Positions 48,447-64,000 of a DNA stretch of 64,000 bases are shown here, in pieces; the stretch's first letter is position 1; the number at the start of each line of letters is the position of its first letter. Below the pieces are notes generated by a model, which saw nothing but the letters and a program-made list of their open reading frames with translations, was not told the origin of the DNA and did not search any database. The DNA comes from Acidobacteriota bacterium (lineage in GTDB: Bacteria > Acidobacteriota > Terriglobia > Terriglobales > Acidobacteriaceae): positions 182,185-246,184 of the forward strand of contig JACPYL010000018.1 in the NCBI GenBank assembly GCA_016196065.1, given 5' to 3'. The position numbers and the translations under genes were made by a program.

Positions 48447-50054
48447 TTATCGGGTCAATTCCTTCACTTGCATGCGATAAGGCTCCAGGAGTTTGCCGGT
48501 TGCGTGCTGTACCAATGTAACTGCGAGTTGATAATTGACTTCAGCTTGCAGGACAATCGTCTCTGCTTGCGCGACTTCCTTTTGCGCGTCCAGCACAAAA
48601 AAAACCTGCTCGGTACCTAGTTCGATTTTCCTCTGTTCGGCAGCGAGGTTCTTGCGCGAAAGGTCGAGCGCTTGCCGGCTGGCAGCTAAGCTGAGTTTCG
48701 CTTCTTCCAGTTGGTGAACTGCATTCGTAACATCCAGCGTGATCTGCTCCTTCAGTCGCCGTTCGGAGTACAGGTCGCGGCGCCGCGAAACCATTGCTGT
48801 ACCAAGCTCGGCTTGCGCAGACCGGTTCTTGATCGGGAGATTCAGGCTGAGCGAGAAGCCATATGTCGGATAGCCAAACGTGAAAGCCTGGTTCAGTGAA
48901 TCGCCCAGACCGCCGCTTGGACTACCTGCCACTCCATTGCCAGCATAGTTTCCCGCCAGCCGCAGATCTGGCAACAGGTTATTGTGAGCGAGTCGGATGC
49001 TCACGTCGTCATTGGCGAGCGCCTGCCTCAGGGCCTCGAGTTCGGGACGGACTTCCATCGCCTGCTGGAGTGCGGTCGTCGCGTCGATATCGAAAGCGGC
49101 CTCGTCACGCACCGGCATTTCTGTAAGGTCAAGGTCAAGGGCTCGAAGAAGCGGGTCGACGGACGCTCCGAGCGTAAAACGGAGAGCGTCCTCGGTCCGC
49201 TTCAGATCGTACTCGGCCTGGATCACTTGTACACGCCGGGTTGCAACCTGCGACTCGGAACGATAAATGTCGAGCGGAGCCAATGCCCCTAATTCGAGCT
49301 CGCGCTTAGCGCGCTTGTAGCTGGCGTCGGCAGCGTCTTGAGATTTCTTTGCGATTTCCACACTCCCGCGGGCCAGTACGACGTTCCAGTACTGCGTAAC
49401 AGTATTCAGAACGGCATCGTTCACCTGAGCCTCGAAGCTCGCCAGGGAGATGCGGACGTTTCGGCGTGCGATGACCAGGGGCGCGCGGTTTGCGAACAAC
49501 CATCGATTTCGAAGCAAGGGCTGCGTAATCTGGAAATTCAAACCTGACGTGATGGAGGGATTGAGGAAAATGTTCGAGTCGTTGGTGGCAAACCGATTGG
49601 CGGTGAAGCCGACTTGCAGATTCGTCCCGGTCTCGAGCGTCTGGCCGTAATCTACTTTCGAGGCCTGAAGGAGTGAAGTGGGGATTGGAGCCCCTTGGAG
49701 GTCGGAATTGGCTGGAAACGTCGCACGCTGGGCGTTGAAGCTGACTGACAGGGCAGGATCAAATGTCGAGTGCGCCCGTAGCAGCGAGAACTTCGAATCT
49801 TCAACGTTTAGTTCCTGCAGGCGGACATTGCTGTTACTCATCAGCGTCGCGATGATCGCTTCCTCTAGGCTGAGGCGCAACTTGCCGTCCACGACGTGCT
49901 CCTGAAGGTATTTCGGTGCGGGAAGTTGGTCGGAGATGACTTGCGGACTGCTGAGCGCATGAAAAGTCTCCCGCTCATAGATGTTCTGCGCAAACGACAG
50001 AGTACCCAGCAGAAGAAGGGCCCAAAGTAAACGGAGTTTCATCTCAGCCTCCAC
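48447..50054 (-). CDS. TolC-family outer-membrane efflux protein
   Basis: Leader KLRLLWALLLLGTLSFAQ. It has the duplicated OEP coiled-coil/beta-barrel repeat architecture. Length is 535 aa. Confidence 0.85.
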   Translation of the reverse strand: MEAEMKLRLLWALLLLGTLSFAQNIYERETFHALSSPQVISDQLPAPKYLQEHVVDGKLRLSLEEAIIATLMSNSNVRLQELNVEDSKFSLLRAHSTFDPALSVSFNAQRATFPANSDLQGAPIPTSLLQASKVDYGQTLETGTNLQVGFTANRFATNDSNIFLNPSITSGLNFQITQPLLRNRWLFANRAPLVIARRNVRISLASFEAQVNDAVLNTVTQYWNVVLARGSVEIAKKSQDAADASYKRAKRELELGALAPLDIYRSESQVATRRVQVIQAEYDLKRTEDALRFTLGASVDPLLRALDLDLTEMPVRDEAAFDIDATTALQQAMEVRPELEALRQALANDDVSIRLAHNNLLPDLRLAGNYAGNGVAGSPSGGLGDSLNQAFTFGYPTYGFSLSLNLPIKNRSAQAELGTAMVSRRRDLYSERRLKEQITLDVTNAVHQLEEAKLSLAASRQALDLSRKNLAAEQRKIELGTEQVFFVLDAQKEVAQAETIVLQAEVNYQLAVTLVQHATGKLLEPYRMQVKELTR

Positions 50055-50096
50055 ATTGTTTAGTTTCCCTGCAAGAATTCGCGGCGCAAGCGCGGG

Positions 50097-51398
50097 CTAT
50101 TCGTACCGGATGGCCTCCACCGGGTCGAGCCGTGCTGCCTTCATCGCCGGGTAGATGCCAAATACCAACCCCACCGAAATCGAAACGAGAAACGCAAGCA
50201 GGATCGAAGGCGCAGTCACGATGGTTGACCATCCCGCGAGCACCGCAATCAGGCGTGACATCCCAAAGCCGAAGGCGATGCCGAAAGTTCCACCCACAAA
50301 GGAAATCATGATTGCCTCAACCACAAACTGGCGCACGATATCAGACTGGCGCGCACCCACGGCGCGTCGTACACCGATTTCGCGTGTGCGCTCGAGAATG
50401 CTGGCCAACATGATGTTCATGATCCCGATGCCGCCTACGAGCAGGGAGATTGACGCGATCGCCACCATGACAGCGCTGAAGAGGCGCTCCGTCCGTTTCT
50501 GTTCCGCCAGCAATTCTGCGGGCACAATTACGCTGAAGTCGGCGGCACCGTGGTGCGACGATTCGAGGATTGCCCGCACGACCTGCGAACTTGGTACTAG
50601 TTGATCGCTGTCCTTCACGTTCAGATAAATTCCGTCGATCTCGTCGCGTCTTCTGCTGTATGTGTTCTCAAGTCGAAACATTGCTGCATTCAAGGGAACG
50701 TAGATAATGTTGTTCAAGTCTTCCGACGGCACGTCAGGCAGGTCGGTTTGAGCGGCAACCTGAGGAGCCACCGTGCCGATCACACGGAACCACTGTTCAT
50801 CGAGCTTCACATACTGACCGACAGAGTTCGCCGCGCCGTACAGGCTGGCCTTTGCGCCCGCGCCCAACACGCATACCGGGGCGCCGTGTTTTTCCTGGTC
50901 GTCATCGAAAAAGCTGCCCTCAGTTACGCGAAGCCCTCCAATGATCGTGTATTCAGGGCTGACGCCATACACGGTGGGGGTGTCCATCCGCGCCTTGGGA
51001 ATTGTCTTCGTCGGCACGTAGCGTTTCCGGGCGGTGGAGGCGGCAACATCGCTGAGGTTATCGCGAATCACGCGGTAATCCTGCAAGGTCAGGCCAGGTG
51101 AGACTTGGCGGATTTTCTGATGAGCCTGCCAATCGGTGGTCTCTTTAGCCTCCACAATCAGGTTGTGCACACCCATCTGTTCGATGAACGCCATCACTCT
51201 TTGGCGAGCACCGGCCCCTATGGAAAGCATGGAGACCACTGCTGCCACGCCAAAGATCATGCCTAGCATGGTGAGCAGCGTACGCAGTCGGTGAGCCAGC
51301 AGGTTCTGCAATCCCAGGCTGAAGTCAGGCGTCCAACGGCCAATCCACCGGATCGCGCGCGCCCGGAGTGTTTCGAATTTGGCGCTTGTCTCCGTCAT
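50097..51398 (-). CDS. MacB/FtsX-type ABC transporter permease (no ATPase domain)
   Basis: It has an N-terminal TM (LRTLLTMLGMIFGVAAVVSMLSIG), a large periplasmic domain and a C-terminal FtsX module (ILERTREIGVRRAVGA). Length is 433 aa, so there is no room for an NBD. Confidence 0.85.
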   Translation of the reverse strand: MTETSAKFETLRARAIRWIGRWTPDFSLGLQNLLAHRLRTLLTMLGMIFGVAAVVSMLSIGAGARQRVMAFIEQMGVHNLIVEAKETTDWQAHQKIRQVSPGLTLQDYRVIRDNLSDVAASTARKRYVPTKTIPKARMDTPTVYGVSPEYTIIGGLRVTEGSFFDDDQEKHGAPVCVLGAGAKASLYGAANSVGQYVKLDEQWFRVIGTVAPQVAAQTDLPDVPSEDLNNIIYVPLNAAMFRLENTYSRRRDEIDGIYLNVKDSDQLVPSSQVVRAILESSHHGAADFSVIVPAELLAEQKRTERLFSAVMVAIASISLLVGGIGIMNIMLASILERTREIGVRRAVGARQSDIVRQFVVEAIMISFVGGTFGIAFGFGMSRLIAVLAGWSTIVTAPSILLAFLVSISVGLVFGIYPAMKAARLDPVEAIRYE

Positions 51399-52706
51399 TC
51401 AGCGCGTCCCTCCACTCAAACTCGGTTCTGTCGAGGAATGACTGGACGATTTCCGAGGGATCGTGGGATCAACAAATGCGATCTGCGTGTCGGCCGCGAG
51501 CCCATCCACAGCAGTGCGACTCTCGGTCTCTGCTTCGACCTTCACTTCGCGAGCTTCATACGTCTTGCCCCGCTTGACGTATACCACGCGTTTCCCGTCT
51601 TTCATGAACACTGCCTGGCGCGGCACGTAAAGAATATTCTTGCGGGCGTTGCCCTCGATCACCATCTGCACGGTAAAGCCGGCTCGCAGCCGCGGATCGG
51701 AACCTGGCAACTGCACCGTAACTTCAAATTGTCCCCCTGTCACTTCATCGAAGAAGTTTCTTGAGGCTATCCCGGAAATGGTCTTCACCGAACCTTGAAA
51801 AGTCTGATTCGGCAAAGCATCCAGTTGGATTCTTGCCGCCTGTCCCACTTTCACATTGCTGCGCTCTCGCTCGTCGAGCTTGGCAGACACCTCCATGGTC
51901 GCGGGATCGATAACGCGCGCGATCGTCGTGCCTGGACCCGTCTGATCCCCTTCATGGTAATCGGGTAGGGCCATTCCTCCCCCGAAAAACTCACCATTGG
52001 AGCCCTCATTCTTTTCGACGGCCACTACGCCATCCAAGGGAGCGCGCACTCTCATCTTCTCGATGTTCTGTTGCGCCTGCTCCATGGCTAACTTTGCTTT
52101 ATGGCGCCTCTCTTGGGCAAGTCCGATCATGGCTTGTCCCGAGACAGTATGGGACTTGACGTCCTGTTCGAGTTGCGCCAGCACCCGCCGCGCCTGATCG
52201 AGCGCCAGGTCGTTCTTCCTGGCATCGATCGCGCTCGCTAGTTCGTTCTTGCCAACTTCGAGTTCCGCGCGGCGGACATCGAAGCGAGCTGTTAAGAGTG
52301 CGACCTTATCCCGCGCGGCTTGCACTGAAGCATCCGCCTTGGCTTGTGCGATCTCCTCATCCGCCTCTTCCAGCTCGGAGCGGCTCTGTTCCATCTTGAA
52401 CTGTTGCTCGGCGGGATCAAATTCGATCACCACATCGTTTTTCTTGACGGGCACTCCGGTATGGAGAAGGTGAGTAATCTGGAGCGATCCACCTCCGATT
52501 TGAGGAGCGGCAAGCATCGCGGAGAGAGTGGCTCGCACTTCCCCGGTGGCATGGATTTTGGAATCGAGATCCCCGCGCTTCACCTGCACCGATGGGATGT
52601 CGTCACTCTCGCTGACCGGTGAAGCCCAGTGGAATGCGGCGGCCACCCCGAGGCCAAGGGCCAGCAGGATGCCAACTAGCAGCCAAATCTTGCGCACGCC
52701 GCTCAC
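51399..52706 (-). CDS. HlyD-family periplasmic adaptor (MFP) 1
   Basis: N-terminal anchor, lipoyl-like halves (VKRGDL...; ..VKKNDVVIEFD), a long coiled-coil and a beta-barrel region. It directly abuts the permease start. Confidence 0.8.
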   Translation of the reverse strand: MSGVRKIWLLVGILLALGLGVAAAFHWASPVSESDDIPSVQVKRGDLDSKIHATGEVRATLSAMLAAPQIGGGSLQITHLLHTGVPVKKNDVVIEFDPAEQQFKMEQSRSELEEADEEIAQAKADASVQAARDKVALLTARFDVRRAELEVGKNELASAIDARKNDLALDQARRVLAQLEQDVKSHTVSGQAMIGLAQERRHKAKLAMEQAQQNIEKMRVRAPLDGVVAVEKNEGSNGEFFGGGMALPDYHEGDQTGPGTTIARVIDPATMEVSAKLDERERSNVKVGQAARIQLDALPNQTFQGSVKTISGIASRNFFDEVTGGQFEVTVQLPGSDPRLRAGFTVQMVIEGNARKNILYVPRQAVFMKDGKRVVYVKRGKTYEAREVKVEAETESRTAVDGLAADTQIAFVDPTIPRKSSSHSSTEPSLSGGTR

Positions 52707-52713
52707 AACGATG

Positions 52714-53961
52714 TCACTCCTTGTTCGAAGGATCCTTCAAAGCCACGCGCTCCCCGGAGCGCAGCCCATTGGCAACGAGAATGCGATCACCGCTCCGACG
52801 ATCTTCTTTCACTTCTCGCTCTTCAAATTTCGAACCGCGAAGTACATACACAACTGAACGTCCGGATTTCTGGAACGATGCCGCGATTGGGATCGTGAGC
52901 GCCTCTCTGACCTTATCGACTACGACACTCAATTGCGCGCTCATCCCCGGCTTGAGCCGGGCGTCACTCTGATCGAGCAGAACCAGGAAAGTGAAATTTC
53001 TCGGAAACGGCCAGCCGCTGGAAAAATCAGTCGTTGCCGCGCCACTGATCAGGTCGATGCGGCCCGTAAACTGGCGGTCCGGAATCGCGTCGAATTGCAC
53101 GTTCACTTCCTGACCGCTCTTTAGCCGGCCGCGTTCGGTTTCGTCCACCCGGGCCGATACCCGTAGCGTGGAAACGTCGGGAAATTCGGCAATGGGCGCT
53201 CCCGGCCATGCCCGATCGCCGGCCTTGAACGCAGCCTGTCCTTCACCGCGCCACAGTTGCAGCAACGAAATCATGCCATCCGAAGGGGCGCGCAGCGTCA
53301 TTTCGCTCAAGGCCCGCTCGGCACGCTGCGCATCGAAAGTCGCCTTCTTGCTCCCCTGGATTTTGTTTGCGATCGCTGCCTTACTGGCCTCGCGATCGGA
53401 CTTCTGTTTCTGTTCCGCTTCCCGCAGGCGCTGTTCGGCATCGCCAACTTTCAACCGATTTTTGTCGCCTTCGATCGCTGAAATAATCTCCTGCTTGCCG
53501 GCTTCGAGCTTTGCAGTCTCGACGTCGTATTTCGCCTTGGCAACGGCAGTAACATTCCCTTCTTCGGAGAGGCGCGCTTCCGCACGCGCCTGGTCGATTT
53601 CCGCCTGCGCCGATTTCAAAGCTGACTTGTATTGGGCCAGGTCTTGCTCGGTGCGCGTCTTGTCAAATTCGACTACCGAATCGCCCTTCTTGACCTGGGA
53701 TCCATCCGTCGCAATCTTTACGATCTGGAGATCGCCAGCTTCGGCCGGGGCGGAGAGGGTGAGCGATCGAAGCGCTTTCACCTCACCACGCAACGACAGC
53801 GAATCGACAAATTCGCCGCGCGTGACCTCAGCGGTCGGAACAGATGGCGGCCGGTTCGTTAATCCGACTGCGCCAACCAATACTGTGAGAACCACGAAAA
53901 CAAACACCCCTAGCAACAGCGCAGGCCGGTATTTCCAGAGTGCTTGCAGCCTGGCGATCAT
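52714..53961 (-). CDS. HlyD-family periplasmic adaptor (MFP) 2
   Basis: Same architecture as MFP 1 (VTRGEF.., VKKGDSVVEFD, coiled-coil). 7 nt upstream of MFP 1. Confidence 0.8.
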   Translation of the reverse strand: MIARLQALWKYRPALLLGVFVFVVLTVLVGAVGLTNRPPSVPTAEVTRGEFVDSLSLRGEVKALRSLTLSAPAEAGDLQIVKIATDGSQVKKGDSVVEFDKTRTEQDLAQYKSALKSAQAEIDQARAEARLSEEGNVTAVAKAKYDVETAKLEAGKQEIISAIEGDKNRLKVGDAEQRLREAEQKQKSDREASKAAIANKIQGSKKATFDAQRAERALSEMTLRAPSDGMISLLQLWRGEGQAAFKAGDRAWPGAPIAEFPDVSTLRVSARVDETERGRLKSGQEVNVQFDAIPDRQFTGRIDLISGAATTDFSSGWPFPRNFTFLVLLDQSDARLKPGMSAQLSVVVDKVREALTIPIAASFQKSGRSVVYVLRGSKFEEREVKEDRRSGDRILVANGLRSGERVALKDPSNKE

Positions 53962-55193
53962 CGCTCCGCCTTCATCTCGCCACCGGCGGGATCCACTGTT
54001 AGGTCGACCGCAGCCGAAAGGTCGGGCATAAGCCGGGCGTCAGTGCCTTGTATCGAAAAAATTGTCGAGAAAGTTCGCACCTTGGAGGAAAAATCCCCGC
54101 TCCTGGCGATTGGTGCAATCTGCTCCAACTTGCCGGGAAGCACGAACTCTGGATAGGCATCCAGTCGCACGTTTGCATCCTGGCCGATTCGAAGACCGAG
54201 TATGTCTTCCTGATTGACCAATACCTGCACCTGCATAGCCGAAGGATTGACGACCCGCATAAAGGGAACACCAGGCTGTACCTGATCTCCCTCCTGCACC
54301 TCGCCCATTCTGCCGTTCTTCCAGATCGTGTTCAACACGACGACTCCGTCCAACGGAGAATGAATCTGCATGAGATCGGCGTTGCTTTGCGCATTTCGCA
54401 TGATCCGTTGCGTCCGGTCGCGTTGGATCTCAAGAATGCGGATCGCAGCGCGCGCTGCGCTGCGTTTCAGCTCAAAGGTTTCTTTTAATTGCTGCAGCGT
54501 CGCCTTGGCCTGCTCCTGATTCTGCTGGGTCTTTTCCACATCAATGCGCGACATCAATTCGACCTTCTTCATATCCAGGTCGGCATTCTTGAGGGCGCTC
54601 TCCGCTTGATGGAGATCGGTCTCGTCCTTGGCGCGGATCGCATCTTCCTTCGCTTGCTTTTCGGCGACTTGGCCCACCAGTTTGTTGTACTCCGTTTGCT
54701 TGTCGAGAAAATCTCTCATCTGTGCCTGGCGGTCGAATTCCACCAACAAGTCACCTGCCTTAACCTTGCTTCCACCAGTCAGCAGCCGCGTGATCGTCAG
54801 CGTACTCACCGTTTGTCCCGAGAGAGCGGGAGCCAGAATCGCGCGCGCCTGGACCGCTTCCGTAGTTCCCTTGAGACGAAGGAGGTGGGACGTTCCAGGA
54901 GTTTGAGCGGAGGTCCCCGGCCCGCTTCGCTGTGTCCCTGACTTACGAATCACCAGGAAGGACAGACCGGCAAGAAATACAAGGAAGATCGTCGCGAATG
55001 CCAGCAACTTGCGAGAAGGTTTCCAGCCCGTTGCCTTTTCGTCGGCAACTGACTGAAGCTCTCCCTCCGCCGGTGAGACGGTGGGAGCGGAGTCATCCAT
55101 CAATCTTCCGTCCGGCGACTGCATAGCCATAGAACGCTGACTTCGTCCAAGGTTGCGCGCAAACTCTTCAGGGCTTTCCCTATTATCTGCCAA
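53958..55193 (-). CDS. HlyD-family periplasmic adaptor (MFP) 3 with ~70-aa cytoplasmic N-extension
   Basis: TTG start at 55193; alternative ATGs near 55130 are possible. The TM span is LLAFATIFLVFLAGLSFLVI. VKAGDLLVEFD and a coiled-coil are present. 4-nt overlap with MFP 2. Confidence 0.7.
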   Translation of the reverse strand: MADNRESPEEFARNLGRSQRSMAMQSPDGRLMDDSAPTVSPAEGELQSVADEKATGWKPSRKLLAFATIFLVFLAGLSFLVIRKSGTQRSGPGTSAQTPGTSHLLRLKGTTEAVQARAILAPALSGQTVSTLTITRLLTGGSKVKAGDLLVEFDRQAQMRDFLDKQTEYNKLVGQVAEKQAKEDAIRAKDETDLHQAESALKNADLDMKKVELMSRIDVEKTQQNQEQAKATLQQLKETFELKRSAARAAIRILEIQRDRTQRIMRNAQSNADLMQIHSPLDGVVVLNTIWKNGRMGEVQEGDQVQPGVPFMRVVNPSAMQVQVLVNQEDILGLRIGQDANVRLDAYPEFVLPGKLEQIAPIARSGDFSSKVRTFSTIFSIQGTDARLMPDLSAAVDLTVDPAGGEMKAER

Positions 55194-55510: not shown

Positions 55511-56800
55511 TCAGCGGTTCCCCGCCTCGGCGCCCTGTAGGTCCAGACTCACGCGTTCCCCGTTAATAAGGACAGACGCCTGGTCAATGAGCTGTTGTCC
55601 CGTGCAATCGTACGCCTCGTAGCAACGCAATGCAGTCGTGGGGAAAAAGAACTCGACTGCTTCATTGCCTTGACTGGCGGGCACTTTGTCCTGCAGATGG
55701 ATGGTGGTGCTGAAAGCGATGCCGTCGAAATCAAGTTCACCCTTGTAGTAGGCCATCACGGGACGGAGAAGATGTCCGATGTGATCGTCAAATGCAAGAG
55801 CTGCCATCTTGTAGCGGCTGCCCGCCGCGGCCGCCGGCAAAGTGGTCGTCACCGAAAATTCGAGATACGCTCCTTTGCGGAACGCGACCATCGCAGGTGG
55901 CGCGTAGGCTACAAAGTGCGCCTGCGCATCGATTTCTTTCACCACCAGATCCGTCACTTTTTGATAAGACGCCTGAGTCTTCGCAAGCGCCTCAGCCGAA
56001 GTGTCGCGAGGCGGGGCTGGAGGAGGTTCGGGTGGCGTCATGCGCGGAAAGGCACGCGGGGCGGCGGTGCTCTCTGCTGCTTTTGACGATTTGGATTTTC
56101 GGCTGGAATCCCTGCTGGCGGCCGGATCCTGGTTCTGCGCATCGATGCGCGCTGCTTCCTGCGCGGCGCGATCGCTCAGATAGAGGACAAAGGGCTCACC
56201 GTTGATAAAGAATTGTCCATCGAGGACGGCCGCCTGACGATCGTTTTCAGTCTTACCGTTGACCAGTCGCAGGGCAGCGTCTTTGGGTAATACAAACACC
56301 AAGTTCTCTGGGCGCTCCATCTTCATACCCATCGCCTTGCCGCGGACGTGATGAGAAATCTCCATCGCGAAGCCTTCGATTTCCGGGATGTCTTTGAGTT
56401 CGTGCACGGCGATGTCCACAATGGGCATCATGACGTCCTGAAACGTGCGGAGAGCGCGATGGCTTTTGTCCACCATATCTCCGGAATAGGACGCGAAGTA
56501 ATTGCCGGTCAACTCGACGACGGTCAAGCCACTGTAGTTGTCGAAGCGAAGGGAACGTTGGTCGGCGTGCTCCTGCTGGGCCAACTCAAGATCGAGGACG
56601 CGGCTGAAATAGAAGGCGTAAGGGAAGATGTGTCCCTGAATTTCGGCCCCTGCGGTTTGCAGCTGCTGGAAGTATTTCTCCTGCAGCGCCCGCATTTGCG
56701 GTTCCTTGATTTCAGCAGGAGTGAGCGTTTGTGCTGTCGCCAGCGATGCCAGGCCCAACACGACCACCAGCCACAACCTTTTACTGCTGCGCGTAAACAA
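55511..56800 (-). CDS. exported hypothetical protein with internal two-domain duplication
   Basis: Leader KRLWLVVVLGLASLATAQ. Two halves are separated by a Ser/Pro/Ala-rich linker (..SSRKSKSSKAAESTAAPRAFPRMTPPEPPPAPPRD..). The halves end in similar strands (LDGQFFINGEPFVLYL vs IDQASVLINGERVSLDL). 20-nt overlap with the upstream cytochrome gene. Confidence 0.5.
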   Translation of the reverse strand: MFTRSSKRLWLVVVLGLASLATAQTLTPAEIKEPQMRALQEKYFQQLQTAGAEIQGHIFPYAFYFSRVLDLELAQQEHADQRSLRFDNYSGLTVVELTGNYFASYSGDMVDKSHRALRTFQDVMMPIVDIAVHELKDIPEIEGFAMEISHHVRGKAMGMKMERPENLVFVLPKDAALRLVNGKTENDRQAAVLDGQFFINGEPFVLYLSDRAAQEAARIDAQNQDPAASRDSSRKSKSSKAAESTAAPRAFPRMTPPEPPPAPPRDTSAEALAKTQASYQKVTDLVVKEIDAQAHFVAYAPPAMVAFRKGAYLEFSVTTTLPAAAAGSRYKMAALAFDDHIGHLLRPVMAYYKGELDFDGIAFSTTIHLQDKVPASQGNEAVEFFFPTTALRCYEAYDCTGQQLIDQASVLINGERVSLDLQGAEAGNR

Positions 56801-57551
56801 TTCCGGGAGCTCCGTAAGGGGGATCGGAAATCATTCGGATGTAAGCGATCACCGCCTGCATCTCGGATTTCGACAAAGTATATCCGTACGGTGGCATCAG
56901 CGGAGATTTATTGAGTGCCGGCCCTCCGTGGGAGATGATCGCAGTCAGGTCGGCATCCGTCATTTTGTTGAGCGTATCGCCTTCTGTAAAGGGATGTGGC
57001 TTGGTTTCGAGGTTGTCGTAGTTCGATACACGCTCGGCGCTTGATTCCTGATTGTGGCATCGTGCGCAGTACTGGTCATTGAGTTGGCTGCCCAACATTT
57101 CCTGGTAGCCGAGCGCGACCTCTTCGACTTTGAGATCAACAACTTTACCGGCCTTGGTCGCTGTGCTCGCAGTAATTTGATAGCGTCCGGGAACCACGCC
57201 GAGGGAAACGTTGCTGGTGAACTGTCCGCTGGAGTCGGTGAGTCCAGTTGCCGGATCGAGATAGACGCCGTTTGGTCCGCGGAGCGTGACCAGAGCGCCC
57301 GGTAAGGCGTTGCCTTGCTCGTCATTGACTTGCAGAACTACGGGCTGAGCGAGGGGTGTTCCTACTGCGGCAGCCTGCTTGCCGCCGCTCGATTCCACAA
57401 TCGCGGTCCCGTATGCGGTTGGCTTCGGCAACGGCGCGGAAGAAGTCGAAGAGCGCGAACAGGCCAAATTGCAAAGGAGGAGCGCAAGAGACAAAACAAG
57501 CGCGCTCCCAGCGGCAGTCCGCTTACCGGATTTCTTGGACTGATACGTCAT
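56781..57551 (-). CDS. lipoprotein-like Ig-domain + monohaem c-type cytochrome
   Basis: The leader ends LLCNLACS (possible lipobox). An Ig-like block follows (PVVLQVNDEQGNALPGALVTL..GRYQITAS). A single CARCH haem motif and a distal Met (SPLMPPYG) are present. Confidence 0.75.
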   Translation of the reverse strand: MTYQSKKSGKRTAAGSALVLSLALLLCNLACSRSSTSSAPLPKPTAYGTAIVESSGGKQAAAVGTPLAQPVVLQVNDEQGNALPGALVTLRGPNGVYLDPATGLTDSSGQFTSNVSLGVVPGRYQITASTATKAGKVVDLKVEEVALGYQEMLGSQLNDQYCARCHNQESSAERVSNYDNLETKPHPFTEGDTLNKMTDADLTAIISHGGPALNKSPLMPPYGYTLSKSEMQAVIAYIRMISDPPYGAPGIVYAQQ

Positions 57552-59620
57552 CGCTTTTTCGCCTCCTGCGCTTCGCGCCCTTTTTGGCTCATCAGGAATG
57601 CGGTCAGGGCGCGGGCGTCATCGTCGCTCATATTGCGCTTCGGCTCCTGTGTGCCGGGACGGAGCGCTTGCGGGTCTTTCATCCAGTTATAGACCCACGC
57701 CGCACTCAGGCGGGAGCCGACATGCGTCAATGTCGGACCGACGTAGCCCTTGTCCTGTTTGGTGTCGATGATGTGGCAACCCTGGCATGCGAATTTGGAA
57801 TAGTAGAGTTGTTTGCCCAATTCAACTTCTCCGGCGGAATAGCCGGACATCGGCATCGCATCGCGGTCGATCTTCGGAGACTGGTAGACCGCCATGATGT
57901 AGTCGGTCAGCGTATTGATTTCCGCGTCCGTCAGGTTGAACTTGGGCATGCGGCGAATCAACGCTGGCCGCAGCGTGTTCGGATTGCGAAAGAATTGCAC
58001 CAGCCATTCCCGCTGCACCGAACTGCCCTCCCATGTAAGGTCGGGAGCCATGTCGCCGCCACGGCCGTTGATGGCGTGGCAAGAGAAGCAGTTCAGATCT
58101 TTGATCAGCTTGCCTGCTGCGCCGGCAGGCTCATAATGCGAAGCGGGAAGAGCAGCCACCGTTTTTGCGGCGGGCATCGTGAGAGACCGTTCGTTATGGG
58201 AGAGCAAAGCGTTCTCGAGAGCATCCACCTGCGCGGTCGAGAACGTATACTGCGGCATTTTCAATCCCGACCCGAAGGCGCGCGGCTGACGAATCTTTGC
58301 GTTGATGTAGTCGTAGAGCGTGTGCGGAACACCGGCCGCGAATGCCAATTGACTCACCGGCTTGCTTCCGATCCGTGTCAGCTCCGGCGCAAAATTGTCG
58401 GGATGCTTGATGCCGTTAATCTCATGGCAGGACGCGCATCCATAGTCATTCACGAGGCGCTTGCCGTGATCAATCTGTTCTTGCGTGGCAGTATCGAGGT
58501 GAACGTTCGCGAGCAAATCAGAGTCTGACTTGCCCATTAGGAAGCCAGTGAGCAGGCCGACTTCCTGATCCGTGAAGCGATAGTGCGGCATGCCCGTGGG
58601 CGGATCGTAATCGTGTGGATTGCGCACCCAGGCCTGCAGCCACTCCGGCCTTACCTTGGTGCCTACTTTCGTCAGTTCCGGTCCCACATTGCCGCCCACC
58701 AGATTGCCGGCGGCATTCTGCACGGCGTGGCATGAAGCACAGAACGATTCTCCGTACAGGCTGGCCGCCTTCGTCTGAAGAGCGGCGTCGTCTTTCACTT
58801 TCTTTGCCTGATCGAGCGAAGCTTGTACGACTTTGACGCCAGCCGATGTGCTCGAAGAAATAAGAAACGCTGAAATGTCGCGGGCGTCTTCATCCTTCAA
58901 TTTGAAATTCGGCATGGTCGCGGAAGTCGAATACGCCTGCGGATCTTTCAGCCAGGCGTAGACCCATTCGCGTGTCGTCTTGTCGGCGACGTGCGCGAGC
59001 GACGGCGGATCGTCCACGCCGGTGATCACGCTGCCGTCAGGACGCTTGATCGTATGGCAGTGAACACAGCCATATTGCGCCAGCATCTTGCGGCCGAGAT
59101 TGAGTTGCGGAGTGCCTTTCAGATCCTGCTGGTGACACTGTCCGCAGGATGACTCCAGGTACTTTGCGGGCAGCAGAGGCTCTTCCCATGCGAGCGTGCT
59201 CATGTGAGCTTCTTCGACAGATGTTGCAGCGCCTTGTCCGCGATGGCACACCGAGCAGCCAAACTGTTCGAGCTTATGCGGGATAGGAGGATGCGGACGG
59301 TAGGGCTGCGCGGTGACGTCCATCAGGGTCGGTTCTTTGAGCGCCGAATGGCAGGACTCGCAACGATCGACGACGTTCATTTCCGGCAGCCAGATCTGCT
59401 GAATGCCGGGTTCGAAGTGGCGGCTCAGTGTAACGGCGTCGCTGCGCTTGCTGATCAGTTTTTCGTAGCCGCGCTGGTAGCGCCGCCATTCGGCAAAATG
59501 ATTCTTGGCGGGAGCGATCGCCAGCAGGATCAGCAGGAAAAGACTCGTCCAACCGAAGGCACGCACCGTATTGCCGAAGAATTTCTGACGAAGTTTTTCG
59601 AGAGAGTCGGGGAGCCGCAC
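57548..59620 (-). CDS. membrane-anchored octahaem c-type cytochrome
   Basis: Eight CxxCH motifs read in the translation: CESCH, CSVCH, CGQCH, CVHCH, CASCH, CASCH, CFSCH and CQGCH. N-terminal TM is WTSLFLLILLAIAPA. The C-terminal units look like class-I cyt c (..MPNF, ..MPHY, ..MPQY, ..MPKF). Confidence 0.85.
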   Translation of the reverse strand: MRLPDSLEKLRQKFFGNTVRAFGWTSLFLLILLAIAPAKNHFAEWRRYQRGYEKLISKRSDAVTLSRHFEPGIQQIWLPEMNVVDRCESCHSALKEPTLMDVTAQPYRPHPPIPHKLEQFGCSVCHRGQGAATSVEEAHMSTLAWEEPLLPAKYLESSCGQCHQQDLKGTPQLNLGRKMLAQYGCVHCHTIKRPDGSVITGVDDPPSLAHVADKTTREWVYAWLKDPQAYSTSATMPNFKLKDEDARDISAFLISSSTSAGVKVVQASLDQAKKVKDDAALQTKAASLYGESFCASCHAVQNAAGNLVGGNVGPELTKVGTKVRPEWLQAWVRNPHDYDPPTGMPHYRFTDQEVGLLTGFLMGKSDSDLLANVHLDTATQEQIDHGKRLVNDYGCASCHEINGIKHPDNFAPELTRIGSKPVSQLAFAAGVPHTLYDYINAKIRQPRAFGSGLKMPQYTFSTAQVDALENALLSHNERSLTMPAAKTVAALPASHYEPAGAAGKLIKDLNCFSCHAINGRGGDMAPDLTWEGSSVQREWLVQFFRNPNTLRPALIRRMPKFNLTDAEINTLTDYIMAVYQSPKIDRDAMPMSGYSAGEVELGKQLYYSKFACQGCHIIDTKQDKGYVGPTLTHVGSRLSAAWVYNWMKDPQALRPGTQEPKRNMSDDDARALTAFLMSQKGREAQEAKKR

Positions 59621-60337
59621 TTAACTCCTCCAGGGCAGAACCCAGGACCATCCCGGGCCGCGGAAAAGGGTGCCGACCGCAGTCAGCACAACCAGTTCAA
59701 AGAGGAACCAGCTCATAATCCAAAAGGAGAGCGGTTTTGCCGCCAGTGAGCGGCGGAAGCGAGAGGGAGAATCGACAGTTGCGCCGGCGGCCATCGCCAT
59801 CAGGGCCACCGTGATCAGCGTGGGAACGAGTGCCACTATCACATCGAAGGCGAGCAGGAATAGTGAGAACACGCTCGCCACCACCCAGAAGATACGCAGG
59901 CGTTTTTGGCGGTCCTTGGTAAATAGACCTTCTGCTTCGATGTTGATGTTGAAATATGGAATCACGATCAGTGCGAGAACGACCAGCGTCGGCACAAGTA
60001 CGCCGGCCACCATCGGCGGAAAGTAGTGCAGCAATTCCTGCAATCCCAGGAAGTACCACGGTGCCTTGGCGGGATTCGGAGTGTGCGATGGGTCCGCCAG
60101 TCCTTCCAGAGGTGCATTGAAAAACAGCGAAATCAGCACCAGGATAATAGTGAGTACCTGCATCACAATCGCGGCCCGGAAGATTACTTCCGGAAACGAT
60201 TGCACAACCTCTTCGTCATGGGCCTTGACCTGCGCCGAGGTGCGGCGCGTCACAAACGCTACCCGCACCGGCGACTTGCGGACATCAGACCCGACTGCGG
60301 CAACGAAGTCTTTGTTCTTATCTTTTACGTCGCTCAT
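59621..60337 (-). CDS. cytochrome b C-terminal part (subunit IV / PetD-like)
   Basis: The Qo-loop motif [13 protein letters not shown] (APWY at nt 60053-60064) is followed by three TM helices. 4-nt overlap with cyt b. Confidence 0.8.
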
Positions 60338-61116
60338 ACCGGAGGCCTCACTGGAGCGGTCGTCATCACAACGTCCGGCTCACTGTGTCGCGCATACAGA
60401 CCGCCATCCTTGCGGATTCGCCAGAAATGGATCATCACGAACAACAACGCAACCAGCGGAAGAATCATGCAGTGCAGTACGTAAAAACGGAGCAGGGCAT
60501 TGGCATTCACGAAATGTCCGCCGAGCATCAGGAAACGGACCTTCCCGCCCACGATTGGAACGGCCGACGCGATATTAGATCCAACCGTGATCGCCCAGAA
60601 GGCCAGTTGATCCCAAGGCAACAGGTATCCGGTGTAACTGAGGAGGAGCGTGATCAGAAGCAGCACGACTCCGACTACCCAGTTGAATTCGCGTGGCGGA
60701 CGATACGCGCCTCGGTAAAACACGCGAAACATGTGCGCGAAGACCAGGAAGACCATTGCGTGCGCGGACCAGCGATGCAGGTTCCTCAGAAACTGCCCGG
60801 AAGAAACGACGAACTGCAGATCCTTGGTGTCGGCGTAAGCCTGCGGTGCCGAGGGATGGTAGTAGAGCATGAGCAGAATCCCTGTGATCACGAGAATCAC
60901 GAAGGTGCCGAGCGTCAGCGTGCCCAGATACCAGGTCGCGTTGAATTCCAGCATGCGCTTGCGCACTTTGGTGGACAGCAAGTGCAGGAAGACGTTTTGC
61001 TGGATGGCCATCGAGTTATGCAGCGTGCTCGATCCCGTGCCACCACGAAACACGGAGCGCCACACCCGCGTCTCACGTAATTCGTCGAAATATCGATTGA
61101 AAGTTGCATTCATCAC
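60334..61116 (-). CDS. cytochrome b (b6-like N-terminal four-helix part)
   Basis: Two bis-His helix pairs are present: [20 protein letters not shown] and [23 protein letters not shown]. Confidence 0.9.
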
Positions 61117-61616
61117 TAAACCCTCACGAACTGCAGCGCGCGGACTTCGGTAGAACGGTCGACCATCAATTCGCCGTCCTCACTCAGCCACATCCGCAGC
61201 CAGGGCAGAGGCTTGGGCGCCGGCCCTTCTTTCTTGACGCCTTCACGAGTGAACTTGCTGCCGTGACATGGGCACGCGATGGTGTCAATCTCCGGTTTCC
61301 ATGCGGTCAGGCAGCCGAGATGCGTGCACACGGCGTTCAGTGCAAAGAAACCCTCCGCTCCGTGCACAACAAATATTCGTGCGTCGACATCGAGCGTGAC
61401 GGAATCGAGTGCATAACTTGCCGGCTGGCCCATATTCACGATCGGAGACGGCTCATAGAGCACATTTGGCGACAGAAACTGGTAGCCGAAAGCGGCCGTA
61501 CCGGCGGCCGCAATGCCGAGCGAACCGAGTCCCATCTTCACGAAGAACTCGCGACGGTCGATGCTGGAGTCCGCCGCTCCCTGAATTCGATCCTGGTTTT
61601 TCTTTTCCTCTGCCAT
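61116..61616 (-). CDS. Rieske [2Fe-2S] subunit, Tat-targeted
   Basis: ATG at 61616 ([31 protein letters not shown]) is preferred over the track start at 61715, which overlaps the upstream gene. Cluster boxes are CTHLGC and CPCHGS. Confidence 0.9.
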
Positions 61617-61662: not shown

Positions 61663-63648
61663 CTACTTCCGAACGCCCGCAGGTATGGCGGGTTGCGCGC
61701 GCAGTGGCGCGTCAATCGCTTCGATCGAAATCAGGCCTGTCGACTCAGCCGGGAGCAGGTTATAGGACTCCATGCTGATCGTTTGCACGGGACAACGCGC
61801 TGCGCACAGGCCGCACCGGATGCAACGCGTTTCATCTTTGATCATTACCGACCCAACGCCTTGGGCGAGCTCCTCGACCGCGATATCGGGCAGTTCGGCT
61901 TCATAGAGCGCGCTGTTAACCGACAGGTGTTCCAGTGTCTCTGCGCTGAACTCGAAGCGATCGAGCGTGACGAGTTCCAGGCAGTTTTCCGGACAGACGT
62001 CGACACACCCGCCGCAGAGAATGCAAATCGACCTATCGTCGGCATTACCCTCGAAAATCGTGTTGACCCAGCAGTGCAGGCACCGTTGCGCCTCGACCAT
62101 CGCCGATTGCTCGTCGTAACTTTCTTCTACTTCCGTCATCCCCGTCCGGCGGTCGAGCGGCAACATCGGGATCGGCTGCCGGATCAGGTCCATGAATTCT
62201 TGCGGCATGGTGTGGCGTTTCAGATCGGTCACTTCGATGACGGGCTCAGGATGTTTCGCGCCGCGCAGGAATTCGTCGATACCCATGGCGGCGCGCTTGC
62301 CGTCACCGACACTGTCGATAATCAGGCGAGGGCCGAATACGCAATCGCCGCCTGCGAATACTCCGGCAGAGGAGGTCATCAACGAATGCGGATTCACCGC
62401 GATCAGACCCCGCGGTGAAACTTCGACACCGTCTTCCGGATGCAGGAAATCGAGTTTGGTGGTCTGGCCGATCGCCATGATGACTGTGTCGCATTCGATT
62501 TCGGTTTCGCTGTTTTCGTAAAAGGCCGGGCTGAATCGATGATTTTCATCGAATACCGATTTCGTTTTCAGACACTCGAGCGCGACCACCTTACCCTCTT
62601 TGCCGATAAACCGCTTGGGACCAAATCCGGCGTGGAGGATTACGCCTTCCATCTCTGCTTCTTCAATTTCTTCGAGCGCAGCCGGCATTTCGTCGCGGCC
62701 TTCCAGGCAGACCACGTGCACTTCCTGAGCGCCCATGCGCAACGCGGAGAGGGAGATGTCCACCATTTCCTTGGTTGCGACGGCGTTGACGTTGTCATCG
62801 GAGGGCGCAAGTTCCTCGACGCCGGAGGCATGCTGACGCAAAACTTCGCGGGCCGCCGAGCGGGCGACGTCCATGGCGACATTTCCGCCGCCGATGACCA
62901 GCACATTGCGGCCGATGGTGAATTTGTAGCCGAGATTCACATTGAGCAGGAAATCCACGCCGCGGTGCACGCCATCGAGATCCACGCCAGGAATCGTCAG
63001 ATCGCGGCTGCGATGCGCACCAATTGCAATCAGGATGGCGTGGAATCCTTGCTGGCGCAGATCGGCGATCTGGAAATCGCGTCCTGCAGTTTGATTCAGC
63101 TTGAGAGTGATGTCACCGGTGGCGAGAATTTCGCGAACCTGTGCTTCGATTACATCGCGCGGCAGTCGATATTCGGGGATGCCGAGATAGAGCATGCCAC
63201 CGGCCACTGGCGCAGCTTCGAAGATCGTGACCGAATAACCCATGAGGGCAAGATCATGCGCGGCCGAGAGCCCGACCGGGCCGCCTCCGATAATTGCGAC
63301 CTTGAAGGGAAGCTTCTCCGAGACTCGCTCGGCATTGACGTCAATATGGTGTTTTGATTCCGGGCCGTAGCGCTCGGTCAGAAATCGTTTCAATGCGCGA
63401 ATAGAAATTGGCTTGTCGATCTGGCCGCGACGGCACGCCGTTTCGCACGGGTGAGCGCAGACTCGTCCGCAGATGCTGGCCAGCGGGTTCGGTCCGCGGG
63501 CGTATTTGTAAGCTTCTTCGAATTGACCTTCGGCAATCAGCCCGACATAGCGGCCCGCATTGGTGTGTGCGGGACACGCCATCATGCAGGGAAAATTGGT
63601 ATGCAACCAATCTTCGTCCACCCGCTTGTCGATGAAGCGCTTCAGCAT
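61663..63648 (-). CDS. GltD-like FAD/NAD(P)H oxidoreductase fused to a 2x[4Fe-4S] ferredoxin domain
   Basis: N-terminal Cys cluster is CMMACPAHTN...CGRVCAHPCETACRRG. Two dinucleotide folds are VAIIGGGPVGLSAA and VLVIGGGNVAMDVA. The C-terminus carries CILCGGCVDVCP and CIRCGLCAARCP. Confidence 0.85.
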   Translation of the reverse strand: MLKRFIDKRVDEDWLHTNFPCMMACPAHTNAGRYVGLIAEGQFEEAYKYARGPNPLASICGRVCAHPCETACRRGQIDKPISIRALKRFLTERYGPESKHHIDVNAERVSEKLPFKVAIIGGGPVGLSAAHDLALMGYSVTIFEAAPVAGGMLYLGIPEYRLPRDVIEAQVREILATGDITLKLNQTAGRDFQIADLRQQGFHAILIAIGAHRSRDLTIPGVDLDGVHRGVDFLLNVNLGYKFTIGRNVLVIGGGNVAMDVARSAAREVLRQHASGVEELAPSDDNVNAVATKEMVDISLSALRMGAQEVHVVCLEGRDEMPAALEEIEEAEMEGVILHAGFGPKRFIGKEGKVVALECLKTKSVFDENHRFSPAFYENSETEIECDTVIMAIGQTTKLDFLHPEDGVEVSPRGLIAVNPHSLMTSSAGVFAGGDCVFGPRLIIDSVGDGKRAAMGIDEFLRGAKHPEPVIEVTDLKRHTMPQEFMDLIRQPIPMLPLDRRTGMTEVEESYDEQSAMVEAQRCLHCWVNTIFEGNADDRSICILCGGCVDVCPENCLELVTLDRFEFSAETLEHLSVNSALYEAELPDIAVEELAQGVGSVMIKDETRCIRCGLCAARCPVQTISMESYNLLPAESTGLISIEAIDAPLRAQPAIPAGVRK

Positions 63649-63693
63649 GAACTTGTGCTCGGCGTTGTCGGAGTCGGTGTAGAAAAAGAGTAA

Positions 63694-63720
63694 GGAGAGC
63701 TGACGTCTGGTCAGCTCTCC
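63694..63720 (-). terminator. intrinsic terminator/attenuator between cupredoxin-like gene and the oxidoreductase gene
   Basis: Perfect 11-bp stem: GGAGAGCTGAC (63694-63704) pairs with GTCAGCTCTCC (63710-63720) across a 5-nt loop. On the minus-strand transcript it is followed by UUACUCUUUUUCU. Confidence 0.55.
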
Positions 63721-63730
63721 TCGCGAGTCT

Positions 63731-64000
63731 TTACTTGGTTAGGGTGAAATCGGCTTTGGCGTCGCCAGCGACCGCAGTGGCTTTCGTCTGGCTCTTGGCG
63801 CCTTCATGCCATGCGACGACGTTGTACTGGCCGTCGGGAACGTTTTCGATTTTGTAATTGCCGCTCTTGTCAGTGATCGCGTAGTAAGGAGTGGGGCTTA
63901 CCACCACATATCCCGACATCTCCGGGTGGACGTTGCACAACAGCGCCGCTGCGCCTGCCTGGTCGAACTTGAACGGACGCTTTTCACCCTGCGGCCATGT
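63731..64000 (-). CDS. cupredoxin-like + carboxypeptidase-regulatory-like domain protein, 5'-truncated by window edge
   Basis: The frame stays open to base 64000 (TWPQGEKRPFKFDQAGAAALLCNVHPEMSGYVVV...). C-x2-H-x2-M resembles a type-1 copper loop. The tail TDKSGNYKIENVPDGQYNVVAWHEG resembles CarboxypepD_reg-like strands. Confidence 0.5.
   Translation of the reverse strand, partial: TWPQGEKRPFKFDQAGAAALLCNVHPEMSGYVVVSPTPYYAITDKSGNYKIENVPDGQYNVVAWHEGAKSQTKATAVAGDAKADFTLTK

Follow-up and report, generated by a model that had tools for sequence, protein, structure and literature searches.

A GltD-like NAD(P) oxidoreductase gene linked to Rieske/cytochrome b genes in Terriglobia: a candidate anammox-type, electron-bifurcating complex

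The reductase gene and its linkage to Rieske and cytochrome b genes

The window analyzed here is a 64,000-nucleotide stretch of contig JACPYL010000018.1 (assembly GCA_016196065.1), from an Acidobacteriota bacterium of the class Terriglobia. Its subject is a gene for a 661-residue flavoprotein of the GltD type (hereafter the reductase), which lies immediately upstream of genes for a Rieske iron-sulfur (Fe-S) protein and a cytochrome b (cyt b). Conserved gene order and homology make it highly probable that this protein is a functional partner of the adjacent cytochrome bc complex. The gene and its parts are as follows.

61663..63648 (-): reductase open reading frame (ORF), 661 aa, ATG start; predicted cytoplasmic NAD(P)(H)-FAD-[4Fe-4S] subunit
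63370..63594 (-): Fer4_20 domain at the N-terminus, residues 19-93 (Pfam)
62254..63306 (-): FAD and NAD(P) Rossmann domains, residues 115-465 (Pfam, motifs, model)
62704..62712 (-): 'CLE' at the end of beta-2 of the NAD(P) domain, residues 313-315 (PDB alignments)
61765..62085 (-): C-terminal region, residues 522-628, with R522-C523-L-x-C526 followed by two CxxCxxCxxxCP motifs (2x[4Fe-4S])

An N-terminal cysteine cluster, two Rossmann folds and a C-terminal double ferredoxin had been described in a sequence-only reading of this stretch, and the ORF, the Pfam matches and the motifs all agree with that description. The Pfam matches lie above the gathering cut-offs (Fer4_20 at residues 19-93, Pyr_redox_2 at 115-449, and Fer4/Fer4_7 at 538-628) and are accompanied by dinucleotide-binding motifs at residues 121 (GGGPVG) and 253 (GGGNVA) and by ferredoxin motifs at residues 542 (CILCGGCVDVCP) and 609 (CIRCGLCAARCP). 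The N-terminal cysteines are found at positions 21, 25, 60, 64, 68, and 72; across an alignment of 71 relatives, C25, C64, C68, and C72 are invariant, C21 and C60 are at least 90% conserved, and R522-C523-L-x-C526 is invariant as well. Such an 'RCLxC' pair normally opens the N-terminal Fe-S domain of GltD/NfnB-type proteins. Here it precedes the C-terminal ferredoxin domain (residues 522-526, 62071-62085), the N-terminal domain has no such pair, and the displaced pair may complete one of the N-terminal clusters once the protein is folded.

On the Kyte-Doolittle scale, the highest value of the reductase over 19 residues was 1.37, compared with 1.7-2.7 in its membrane or secreted partners. In line with the sequence-only reading, the scan revealed neither a transmembrane segment nor a signal peptide, and the protein is thus predicted to be soluble. 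An AlphaFold2 model built from 71 sequences (pLDDT 86.4, pTM 0.88) contains one disordered insertion, about 30 residues of low confidence at positions 276-307. Foldseek matched this model best to 9bov_A, 8oh5_C, 9n5u_A, and 5jca_L (E 1e-30 to 1e-49), ranking the NfnB-like subunits of NfnABC and StnABC first and NfnI-L, Xfn, NfnB, GltD, and DPD thereafter, and a PDB sequence search returned its matches in the same order (NfnABC/StnC/NfnB/GltD/DPD). By domain content, the protein is a member of the NfnB/GltD/DPD superfamily (Fer4_20 plus Pyr_redox_2) with an added C-terminal ferredoxin domain, its position among NfnB, SudA, PreT, and GltD being a ranking by E-value and Foldseek score. It passes no NCBIfam model, its scores against GltD-type equivalog models fall far short of their cut-offs, and the source annotations of its relatives read 'formate dehydrogenase beta subunit' or 'glutamate synthase beta subunit-like'. 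Genes for NfnA/SudB, GltB, PreA, or a formate dehydrogenase catalytic subunit were absent from the window's operon and from the 10-kb flanks of a related locus (L001). The PreT, SudA, GltD, and formate-dehydrogenase-beta identities were therefore rejected for lack of partner genes.

The neighborhood was then compared across genomes, using a profile derived from a 12-sequence alignment and one genome per species; from at least 570 relatives, the best 80 were taken. These show 57-88% identity to the window's reductase, all come from metagenome-assembled genomes (MAGs), many of them sampled from peat, bog, or palsa, and nearly all are labeled Acidobacteriota (Acidobacteriaceae/Terriglobales, Bryobacterales, Solibacteraceae, Acidoferrales, and Pyrinomonadaceae). 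Among these best 80, Rieske and cyt b genes directly follow the reductase gene in 78 of the 79 informative loci, so that the synteny across Acidobacteriota which the sequence-only reading had proposed to check is indeed kept. The commonest full order is cupredoxin, reductase, Rieske, cyt b, a subunit IV-like protein (SUIV), octahaem cytochrome c, and monohaem cytochrome c. Identity to the window co-varies between reductase and cyt b across the loci (r = 0.95), as expected for co-inherited genes.

This linkage persists at 39-48% reductase identity and in more than one gene order, with stops and starts overlapping by 1-4 nt in some loci. A Nitrospinota-annotated MAG (L082) carries genes for an EB_dh protein, the reductase, a fused long cyt b, a Rieske protein, and a cytochrome c, the reductase stop overlapping the cyt b start, while a Myxococcota-annotated locus (L151) has reductase, Rieske, cyt b, SUIV, and multihaem cytochrome c genes followed by one for a molybdopterin enzyme. 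Three further loci in this identity range, which carry no taxonomic assignment, are likewise linked to bc genes. On this comparative evidence, the reductase/bc neighborhood is not accidental. The window's bc genes are the following.

61116..61616 (-): Rieske [2Fe-2S] protein (Pfam); Tat motif RREF; CTHLGC / CPCHGSKF ('S-F' type)
60334..61116 (-): short b6-like cyt b, 260 aa (Pfam); haem ligands H114/H128 and H215/H230; invariant N-terminal H45
59621..60337 (-): SUIV, 238 aa (Pfam Cytochrom_B_C); four hydrophobic segments

The Qo motif APWY lies at SUIV residues 92-95 (60053-60064), and from the Rieske gene onward, the genes share one strand and overlap or abut. The reductase stop codon (61663-61665) and the Rieske ATG (61616) agree with the same-strand distance of 46 nt reported earlier, and this gap carries a GAGGG ribosome-binding site. 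The terminator/promoter pair that the sequence-only reading had considered as a possible break was not found, the scans of the gap having detected nothing that resembles a terminator or a promoter, and in folding the gap does not surpass its shuffles (z +1.2). A sigma-70 promoter scan gave nothing near the reductase gene, with the count across the region at chance level.

Kinship with the anammox complexes and the predicted coenzyme

The closest relatives with experimental information are found in the anammox planctomycete Kuenenia stuttgartiensis, in which the gene clusters Kuste4569-4574 and Kustd1480-1485 contain the NAD(P) oxidoreductase subunits Kuste4570 and Kustd1483 (PMC12954380). This confirms an association that the sequence-only reading had mentioned. 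The subunits of the anammox complexes co-migrate experimentally (de Almeida et al. 2016, as reported in PMC12954380; PMC5600118), the Rieske proteins Kuste4569 and Kustd1480 titrate at +303 and +335 mV, the terminal partner is an HAO-like enzyme (Kuste4574), and the reduction of NAD(P)+ from quinol is a proposal (PMC12954380). In an AlphaFold 3 (AF3) model of the anammox complex, electrons pass from haem bN/cN through a novel haem b and four Fe-S clusters to FAD; the novel haem is ligated by His43 of both cyt b monomers and flanked by Arg247 of cyt b and Arg511 of Kuste4570 (PMC12954380).

Judged by sequence, the 661-residue protein is a homologue of Kuste4570 and Kustd1483. Among PDB entries, the window's Rieske protein matched 9rk4 (E 7e-25) and 9rk3 (E 1e-20) best, which from their CPCHGSKY/CPCHGSGF motifs and tryptophan content are identified as Kuste4569 and Kustd1480. 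It carries the S-F signature CPCHGSKF, as in Kustd1480; a serine beside cluster box II, with or without a tyrosine, marks Rieske proteins of high potential, and the window's cluster is predicted to be of this type. Anammox-type metagenome loci were fetched with the 9rk4 (Kuste4569 Rieske) sequence, and the reductase was compared in L088, L105, L129, and L141. The gene order of such loci is Rieske-reductase-cyt b-SUIV, and their reductases are 35-44% identical to that of the window over residues 3-635, linker and ferredoxin domain included (tblastn, alignment). This relationship extends to the membrane subunits, as the anammox-type cyt b is about 50% identical to the window's (48-64% when the anammox, Nitrospinota, and Myxococcota homologues are taken together), and the SUIV stretch around APWY is almost identical. 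Homology at this level and the synteny in 78 of 79 loci support the suggestion, made from the sequence alone, that an analogous NAD(P)-linked bc module exists in this acidobacterial genome.

The residues around the modeled haem were compared with numbering calibrated on L105, whose His44 and Arg248 correspond to the published His43 and Arg247. The haem ligand His43 is the invariant histidine of an N.(F/W)LH motif and equals H45 of the window's cyt b; Arg247 falls in a conserved stretch of the same protein, and Arg511 of Kuste4570 most probably corresponds to R522 of the reductase 'RCLxC' motif, by way of a 12-residue offset. The histidine and arginine residues of the predicted extra haem b site thus appear to be conserved in the window's complex.

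The haem cN motif CxGG, in contrast, is missing: the window's cyt b reads WYLGT where the anammox loci have WCMGG or WCLGG. The other acidobacterial loci lack the motif too, as do the Nitrospinota and Myxococcota relatives, all with Y or F at that position, and any route by which electrons reach the reductase here must therefore dispense with haem cN. A search of the downstream genes with Pfam and NCBIfam gave no HAO-type domain match.

A second difference concerns the coenzyme. As a rule of the Rossmann fold, an acidic residue at the end of beta-2 favors NAD(H). The window's 'CLE' has such a residue at the position that reads 'YRR' in the NADP(H)-using NfnABC, NfnB, NfnI, Xfn, and StnC (9bov, 4ylf_B, 5jca_L, 5vj7, and 8oh5), which suggests NADH rather than NADPH as the coenzyme of the window's reductase. 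Among the 71 relatives, (C/S)LE-type motifs make up roughly three quarters and YRR about one fifth, and both types occur in bc-linked genes, anammox-type loci included.

Remaining genes and the extent of the transcription unit

The reductase and bc genes are flanked by further genes for predicted periplasmic or secreted proteins and by one conspicuous hairpin.

63731..64000 (-): secreted protein with cupredoxin and CarboxypepD_reg-like domains, 3' end of the gene (5' part beyond the window); translation ends ...LLCNVHPEM...TLTK*
63682..63722 (-): terminator-like hairpin with T-tract between the cupredoxin and reductase genes (stem-loop 63722-63692); 13-bp stem, 7 G-C pairs
57548..59620 (-): octahaem cytochrome c, membrane-anchored, 690 aa (Pfam; 8 CxxCH; hydrophobic segment 18-39)
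56781..57551 (-): Big_1 and monohaem cytochrome c protein, 256 aa, probable lipoprotein (Pfam; CxxCH at 162; N-terminal hydrophobic segment; LAC lipobox)
55511..56800 (-): secreted protein, 429 aa, last gene of the operon; overlaps the Big_1-monohaem c gene by 20 nt

Nearly all related loci have the cupredoxin gene (44-81% identity; motif CN(V/M)HPEM) as the immediate upstream neighbor of the reductase gene, and it is present too in relatives at 39-48% reductase identity. We take CNVHPEM to be a CxxHxxM type-1 copper motif, as in amicyanin. A full-length homologue (L001:9334-9912) has a signal peptide and matches Pfam Cupredoxin_1, Copper-bind, and CarboxypepD_reg, and the protein is likely a periplasmic electron carrier of the complex. 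In loci L131 and L133 (about 7345-7617, opposite strand), a cupredoxin homologue of 43% identity stands about 1.3 kb from a Rieske gene whose product shares 66% identity with Kuste4569; neither locus gave a reductase or cyt b match.

The hairpin noted in the sequence-only reading is real: the 91-nt stretch around it has a minimum free energy of -26.5 kcal/mol (z -3.3), and none of 200 shuffles folded as well. The accompanying claim that the reductase heads its transcription unit is not secure, since a comparable hairpin precedes the reductase gene in only 24 of 82 related loci and the cupredoxin-to-reductase gap is just 9-45 nt in many relatives. For the same reasons, the cupredoxin gene is probably the ancestral first gene of the unit, and the hairpin seen in the window may be a terminator or attenuator specific to its lineage.

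Both cytochrome c genes are conserved in related loci, the octahaem protein being class-I/FixO-like. The 429-residue secreted protein has no match in Pfam or NCBIfam, and about half of the related loci encode a recognizable homologue (26-70% identity). NCBIfam places cyt b, SUIV, and cytochrome c nearest to the families ExtP (262 bits against a cut-off of 290), ExtQ, and ExtS, with all scores below the cut-offs, and searches with Pfam and NCBIfam found no terminal reductase gene in the window's cluster.

Several observations were made on the surroundings of the reductase gene in relatives. Periplasmic partners differ by lineage: a molybdopterin oxidoreductase gene (L151:10573-13841) follows the multihaem cytochrome c gene in the Myxococcota-annotated locus, and the gene of an EB_dh protein (L082:2070-3029), a haem-b protein resembling ethylbenzene dehydrogenase, precedes the reductase gene in the Nitrospinota-annotated one. 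Upstream of the cluster, the non-Terriglobales loci L083, L084, L086, L150, L151, and L082 encode a sigma-54-dependent response regulator, in many cases together with a histidine kinase; no such regulator was seen in L001, the sole Terriglobales-like locus whose flank was inspected. In a distant relative of 47% identity (P0129; L085:4526-6550), the reductase gene is followed by one for a membrane-anchored, FtrD-like protein with four cysteines (CPICG...CLKC), accompanied by two small proteins and a polytopic membrane protein that matches nothing in Pfam, and this neighborhood may be an alternative membrane module. The MAG MFD01689.bin.1.40 holds both a bc-linked copy (L058) and a stand-alone paralogue (L066), the latter among Pirin, FolD, TonB-receptor, and Ser/Thr-kinase genes. 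Directly downstream of the window's bc operon lies an unrelated MacB-type efflux cluster (48447-55193, -), with three consecutive HlyD-family adaptors, a MacB_PCD/FtsX permease, and an OEP outer-membrane factor.

Direction of electron flow and comparison with known systems

The reading that we favor, with a probability of roughly 0.5, is that the window encodes a quinol-oxidizing, electron-bifurcating, NAD(P)+-reducing Rieske/cyt b complex. The reductase would dock to the cyt b dimer from the cytoplasmic side, and menaquinol would be oxidized at the Qo site marked by APWY. The first electron would pass to the predicted high-potential S-F Rieske cluster and on to the octahaem cytochrome c, the lipoprotein with its monohaem cytochrome c, and probably the cupredoxin. 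The other electron, a strong reductant, would cross the membrane through haems bP and bN, possibly by way of an additional haem b that the invariant His45 would hold between the cyt b monomers, and would reach FAD through the 2x[4Fe-4S] ferredoxin domain and two N-terminal [4Fe-4S] clusters. After two turnovers, NAD(P)+, here probably NAD+, would be reduced, so that quinone-based bifurcation would yield pyridine-nucleotide reductant without reversal of complex I.

The standard potentials of menaquinone and NAD+ are -74 mV and -320 mV. By our estimate, electron transfer from menaquinol to a Rieske cluster at about +300 mV together with NAD+ would be slightly exergonic (about +64 mV per electron pair), and the reaction is therefore probably reversible. 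That the complex runs in the NAD(P)+-reducing direction is given at best an even chance. A narrower formulation, in which a bifurcating version without haem cN and of the NADH type forms, with an octahaem cytochrome c and a blue-copper protein, a conserved module of seven to eight genes in uncultured soil and peat Terriglobia, supplying NADH from menaquinol without complex I reversal and occurring also in Nitrospinota- and Myxococcota-annotated relatives, is tentative.

Several points weigh against bifurcation toward NAD(P)+. The reduction of NAD(P)+ by the anammox complexes is itself a proposal, and the need of heterotrophic soil bacteria for such a reaction is not obvious. With CxGG missing here, the modeled anammox path is not transferable unchanged, and the residue correspondences to that model depend on numbering offsets. 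One anammox-type locus (L111, 8794-11163) encodes a cyt b with CxGG and the histidine motif as well as SUIV, with just 285 nt between the Rieske and cyt b genes and no reductase gene in the 18-kb locus, so that the N-terminal histidine of cyt b is not specific to reductase-bearing complexes. Moreover, three of 10 sampled distant representatives (P0129, P0139, and P0178) are not linked to bc genes, and the 69%-identical reductase paralogue of L066 (7896-9944) stands alone, away from bc genes.

The last two observations, the nearness of fold and sequence to NfnB-type subunits, GltD, and DPD, the protein's own ferredoxin domain, and the annotations carried by its relatives would all suit an independent, soluble enzyme of the NfnB/SudA/GltD/PreT kind, such as a ferredoxin:NAD(P) oxidoreductase or sulfide dehydrogenase, which merely neighbors the bc genes or is co-regulated with them. 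The sequence-only reading had offered a PreT- or SudA-like neighbor as its alternative. This is now disfavored and we hold it to be very improbable, given adjacency in 78 of 79 acidobacterial loci, linkage in loci annotated to other phyla with several gene orders and with overlaps of the translational-coupling kind, the absence nearby of NfnA/SudB, PreA, GltB, and formate dehydrogenase catalytic genes, and the co-migration of the anammox homologue with bc subunits (PMC12954380). Also unlikely, though marginally less so, is a respiratory module directed to the periplasm, in which the octahaem cytochrome and the blue-copper protein would reduce an external acceptor (a metal, a metalloid, humics, or nitrogen oxides) and the flavoprotein would serve as an alternative cytoplasmic donor, NAD(P)H driving periplasmic reduction via the b haems. 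The selenite/tellurite reduction (ext) cluster of Geobacter provides the precedent, its ExtP, ExtQ, and ExtS being the nearest NCBIfam families, albeit below cut-off. The molybdopterin enzyme encoded after the cytochrome c gene in the Myxococcota relative, the EB_dh haem-b domain protein of the Nitrospinota relative, the HAO-like terminal partner in anammox (PMC12954380), and the peat, bog, or palsa origin of many related MAGs point the same way. The window's cluster has no terminal reductase gene, however, and a flow from NAD(P)H to the P-side would bypass the Rieske/Qo machinery, yet that machinery is strictly conserved.

A more serious competitor, possible but clearly less probable than bifurcation, is the same complex working in reverse. 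The flavoprotein would oxidize NAD(P)H, electrons would pass through the Fe-S chain to the b haems, and menaquinone would be reduced on the N-side, making the assembly a membrane-anchored NAD(P)H dehydrogenase or an N-side 'primer' comparable to FNR on b6f. In a variant, electrons from NAD(P)H and from a periplasmic donor of high potential (cytochrome c or blue-copper protein) would confurcate, and quinone would be reduced at Qo in a reversed Q cycle. All of the synteny and homology evidence fits this direction equally well, 'CLE' points to NADH, a catabolic carrier, and the overall reaction, by our estimate near equilibrium, could be reversible. Dibrova et al. regard complexes of this kind, their subfamily G, as relics of membrane-anchored dehydrogenases and relate a suggestion by de Almeida et al. 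2016 that the function is to pass electrons from hydrazine to menaquinone (PMC5600118), and the APWY clade has been suggested to operate in reverse (PMC4122944). Against this direction, the predicted high-potential S-F Rieske protein combined with a low-potential quinone suits bifurcation toward a very low-potential b chain (PMC12954380), and NADH:quinone reduction without proton pumping would be wasteful compared with complex I, as argued for anammox in the same paper. Confurcation from about +300 mV and -320 mV to -74 mV would, by our estimate, be slightly endergonic under standard conditions.

Rieske/cyt b complexes that bear an NAD(P) reductase are an open problem in bioenergetics, examined only in slow-growing anammox enrichment cultures, and they are proposed to run quinone-based bifurcation 'the other way', sending an electron uphill to NAD(P)+. 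The module in Terriglobia and in loci annotated to other phyla widens the physiological context beyond anammox, its natural variants (absence of haem cN; 'CLE' versus 'YRR') are directly informative about the electron path and the coenzyme that have been proposed, and the organisms and genes identified here could make the mechanism testable. If the narrower formulation given above is true, the formation of NADH from menaquinol by bifurcation would be a widespread respiratory strategy rather than an anammox specialty and could support growth or persistence on donors at the quinone level, for example H2, CO, succinate, or reduced sulfur; if bifurcation is real, reductant supply in abundant soil bacteria would need to be modeled differently.

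Compared with known systems, the Geobacter ext operon supplies, in ExtP, ExtQ, and ExtS, the nearest curated NCBIfam families for the window's cyt b, SUIV, and cytochrome c, but the window's proteins all score below the family cut-offs, and we know of no reductase subunit of this kind in that operon. The FNR of the b6f complex has an unrelated fold without Fe-S clusters and is encoded outside the pet operon, and its electrons enter via ferredoxin and haem cN. The likeness to it is one of concept, a pyridine-nucleotide flavoenzyme on the N-side of a b6-type complex (Zhang et al. 2001, as cited in PMC5600118). The NfnB, NfnABC-StnABC large-subunit, SudA, GltD, and DPD proteins share with the reductase the Fer4_20 cysteines and both dinucleotide-binding motifs and provide its best sequence and fold matches (9bov, 8oh5, 9n5u, 5jca_L, 4ylf_B, 2vdc_G, and 1h7w). 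The reductase differs from them in having no NfnA/SudB, GltB, or PreA partner, in 'CLE' for 'YRR', in the membrane bc genes alongside, and, relative to the NfnB/GltD type, in an 'RCLxC' pair that sits before an extra C-terminal ferredoxin domain.

To our knowledge, no member of the APWY clade, or subfamily G, has been characterized biochemically. The window's complex is probably of this type, to judge from its Qo motif and overall similarity, sharing with the clade (Kao & Hunte 2014) and the subfamily (Dibrova et al. 2013, 2017) the APWY motif, the split cyt b, an S-F (mid+/high) Rieske protein, and a large NAD(P)-binding Fe-S oxidoreductase alongside. Acidobacteria were not among the hosts listed when the clade was defined in 2014 (PMC4122944), and co-occurrence of the reductase with subfamily G cyt b has already been noted 'in many other cases' (Dibrova et al. 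2013/2017; PMC5600118), so that this kind of complex is known though uncharacterized. Our literature searches found no paper describing the module in Acidobacteria or Terriglobia. What is added here is a synteny that is nearly universal in many Terriglobia MAGs, the lack of haem cN, the division of relatives into CLE and YRR types, the conserved ligand of the predicted extra haem, and the octahaem cytochrome c and cupredoxin partners.

The closest likeness is to the anammox complexes Kuste4569-4574 and Kustd1480-1485, which share full-length reductase homology, a split cyt b6/SUIV, APWY, a Ser-signature Rieske protein, the N-terminal cyt b histidine and the interface arginine residues, and a multihaem cytochrome c downstream. 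The reductase gene lies between Rieske and cyt b there and before Rieske here, and the CxGG haem cN motif and HAO-like partner of the anammox complexes are both missing here, the place of the latter being taken by the octahaem cytochrome c, the Big_1-monohaem cytochrome c, the blue-copper protein, and the 429-residue protein. 'YRR' in the anammox complexes stands against 'CLE' in the window, though CLE occurs in some anammox-type loci, and the module is carried by a Terriglobia bacterium of soil or peat rather than by an anammox planctomycete.

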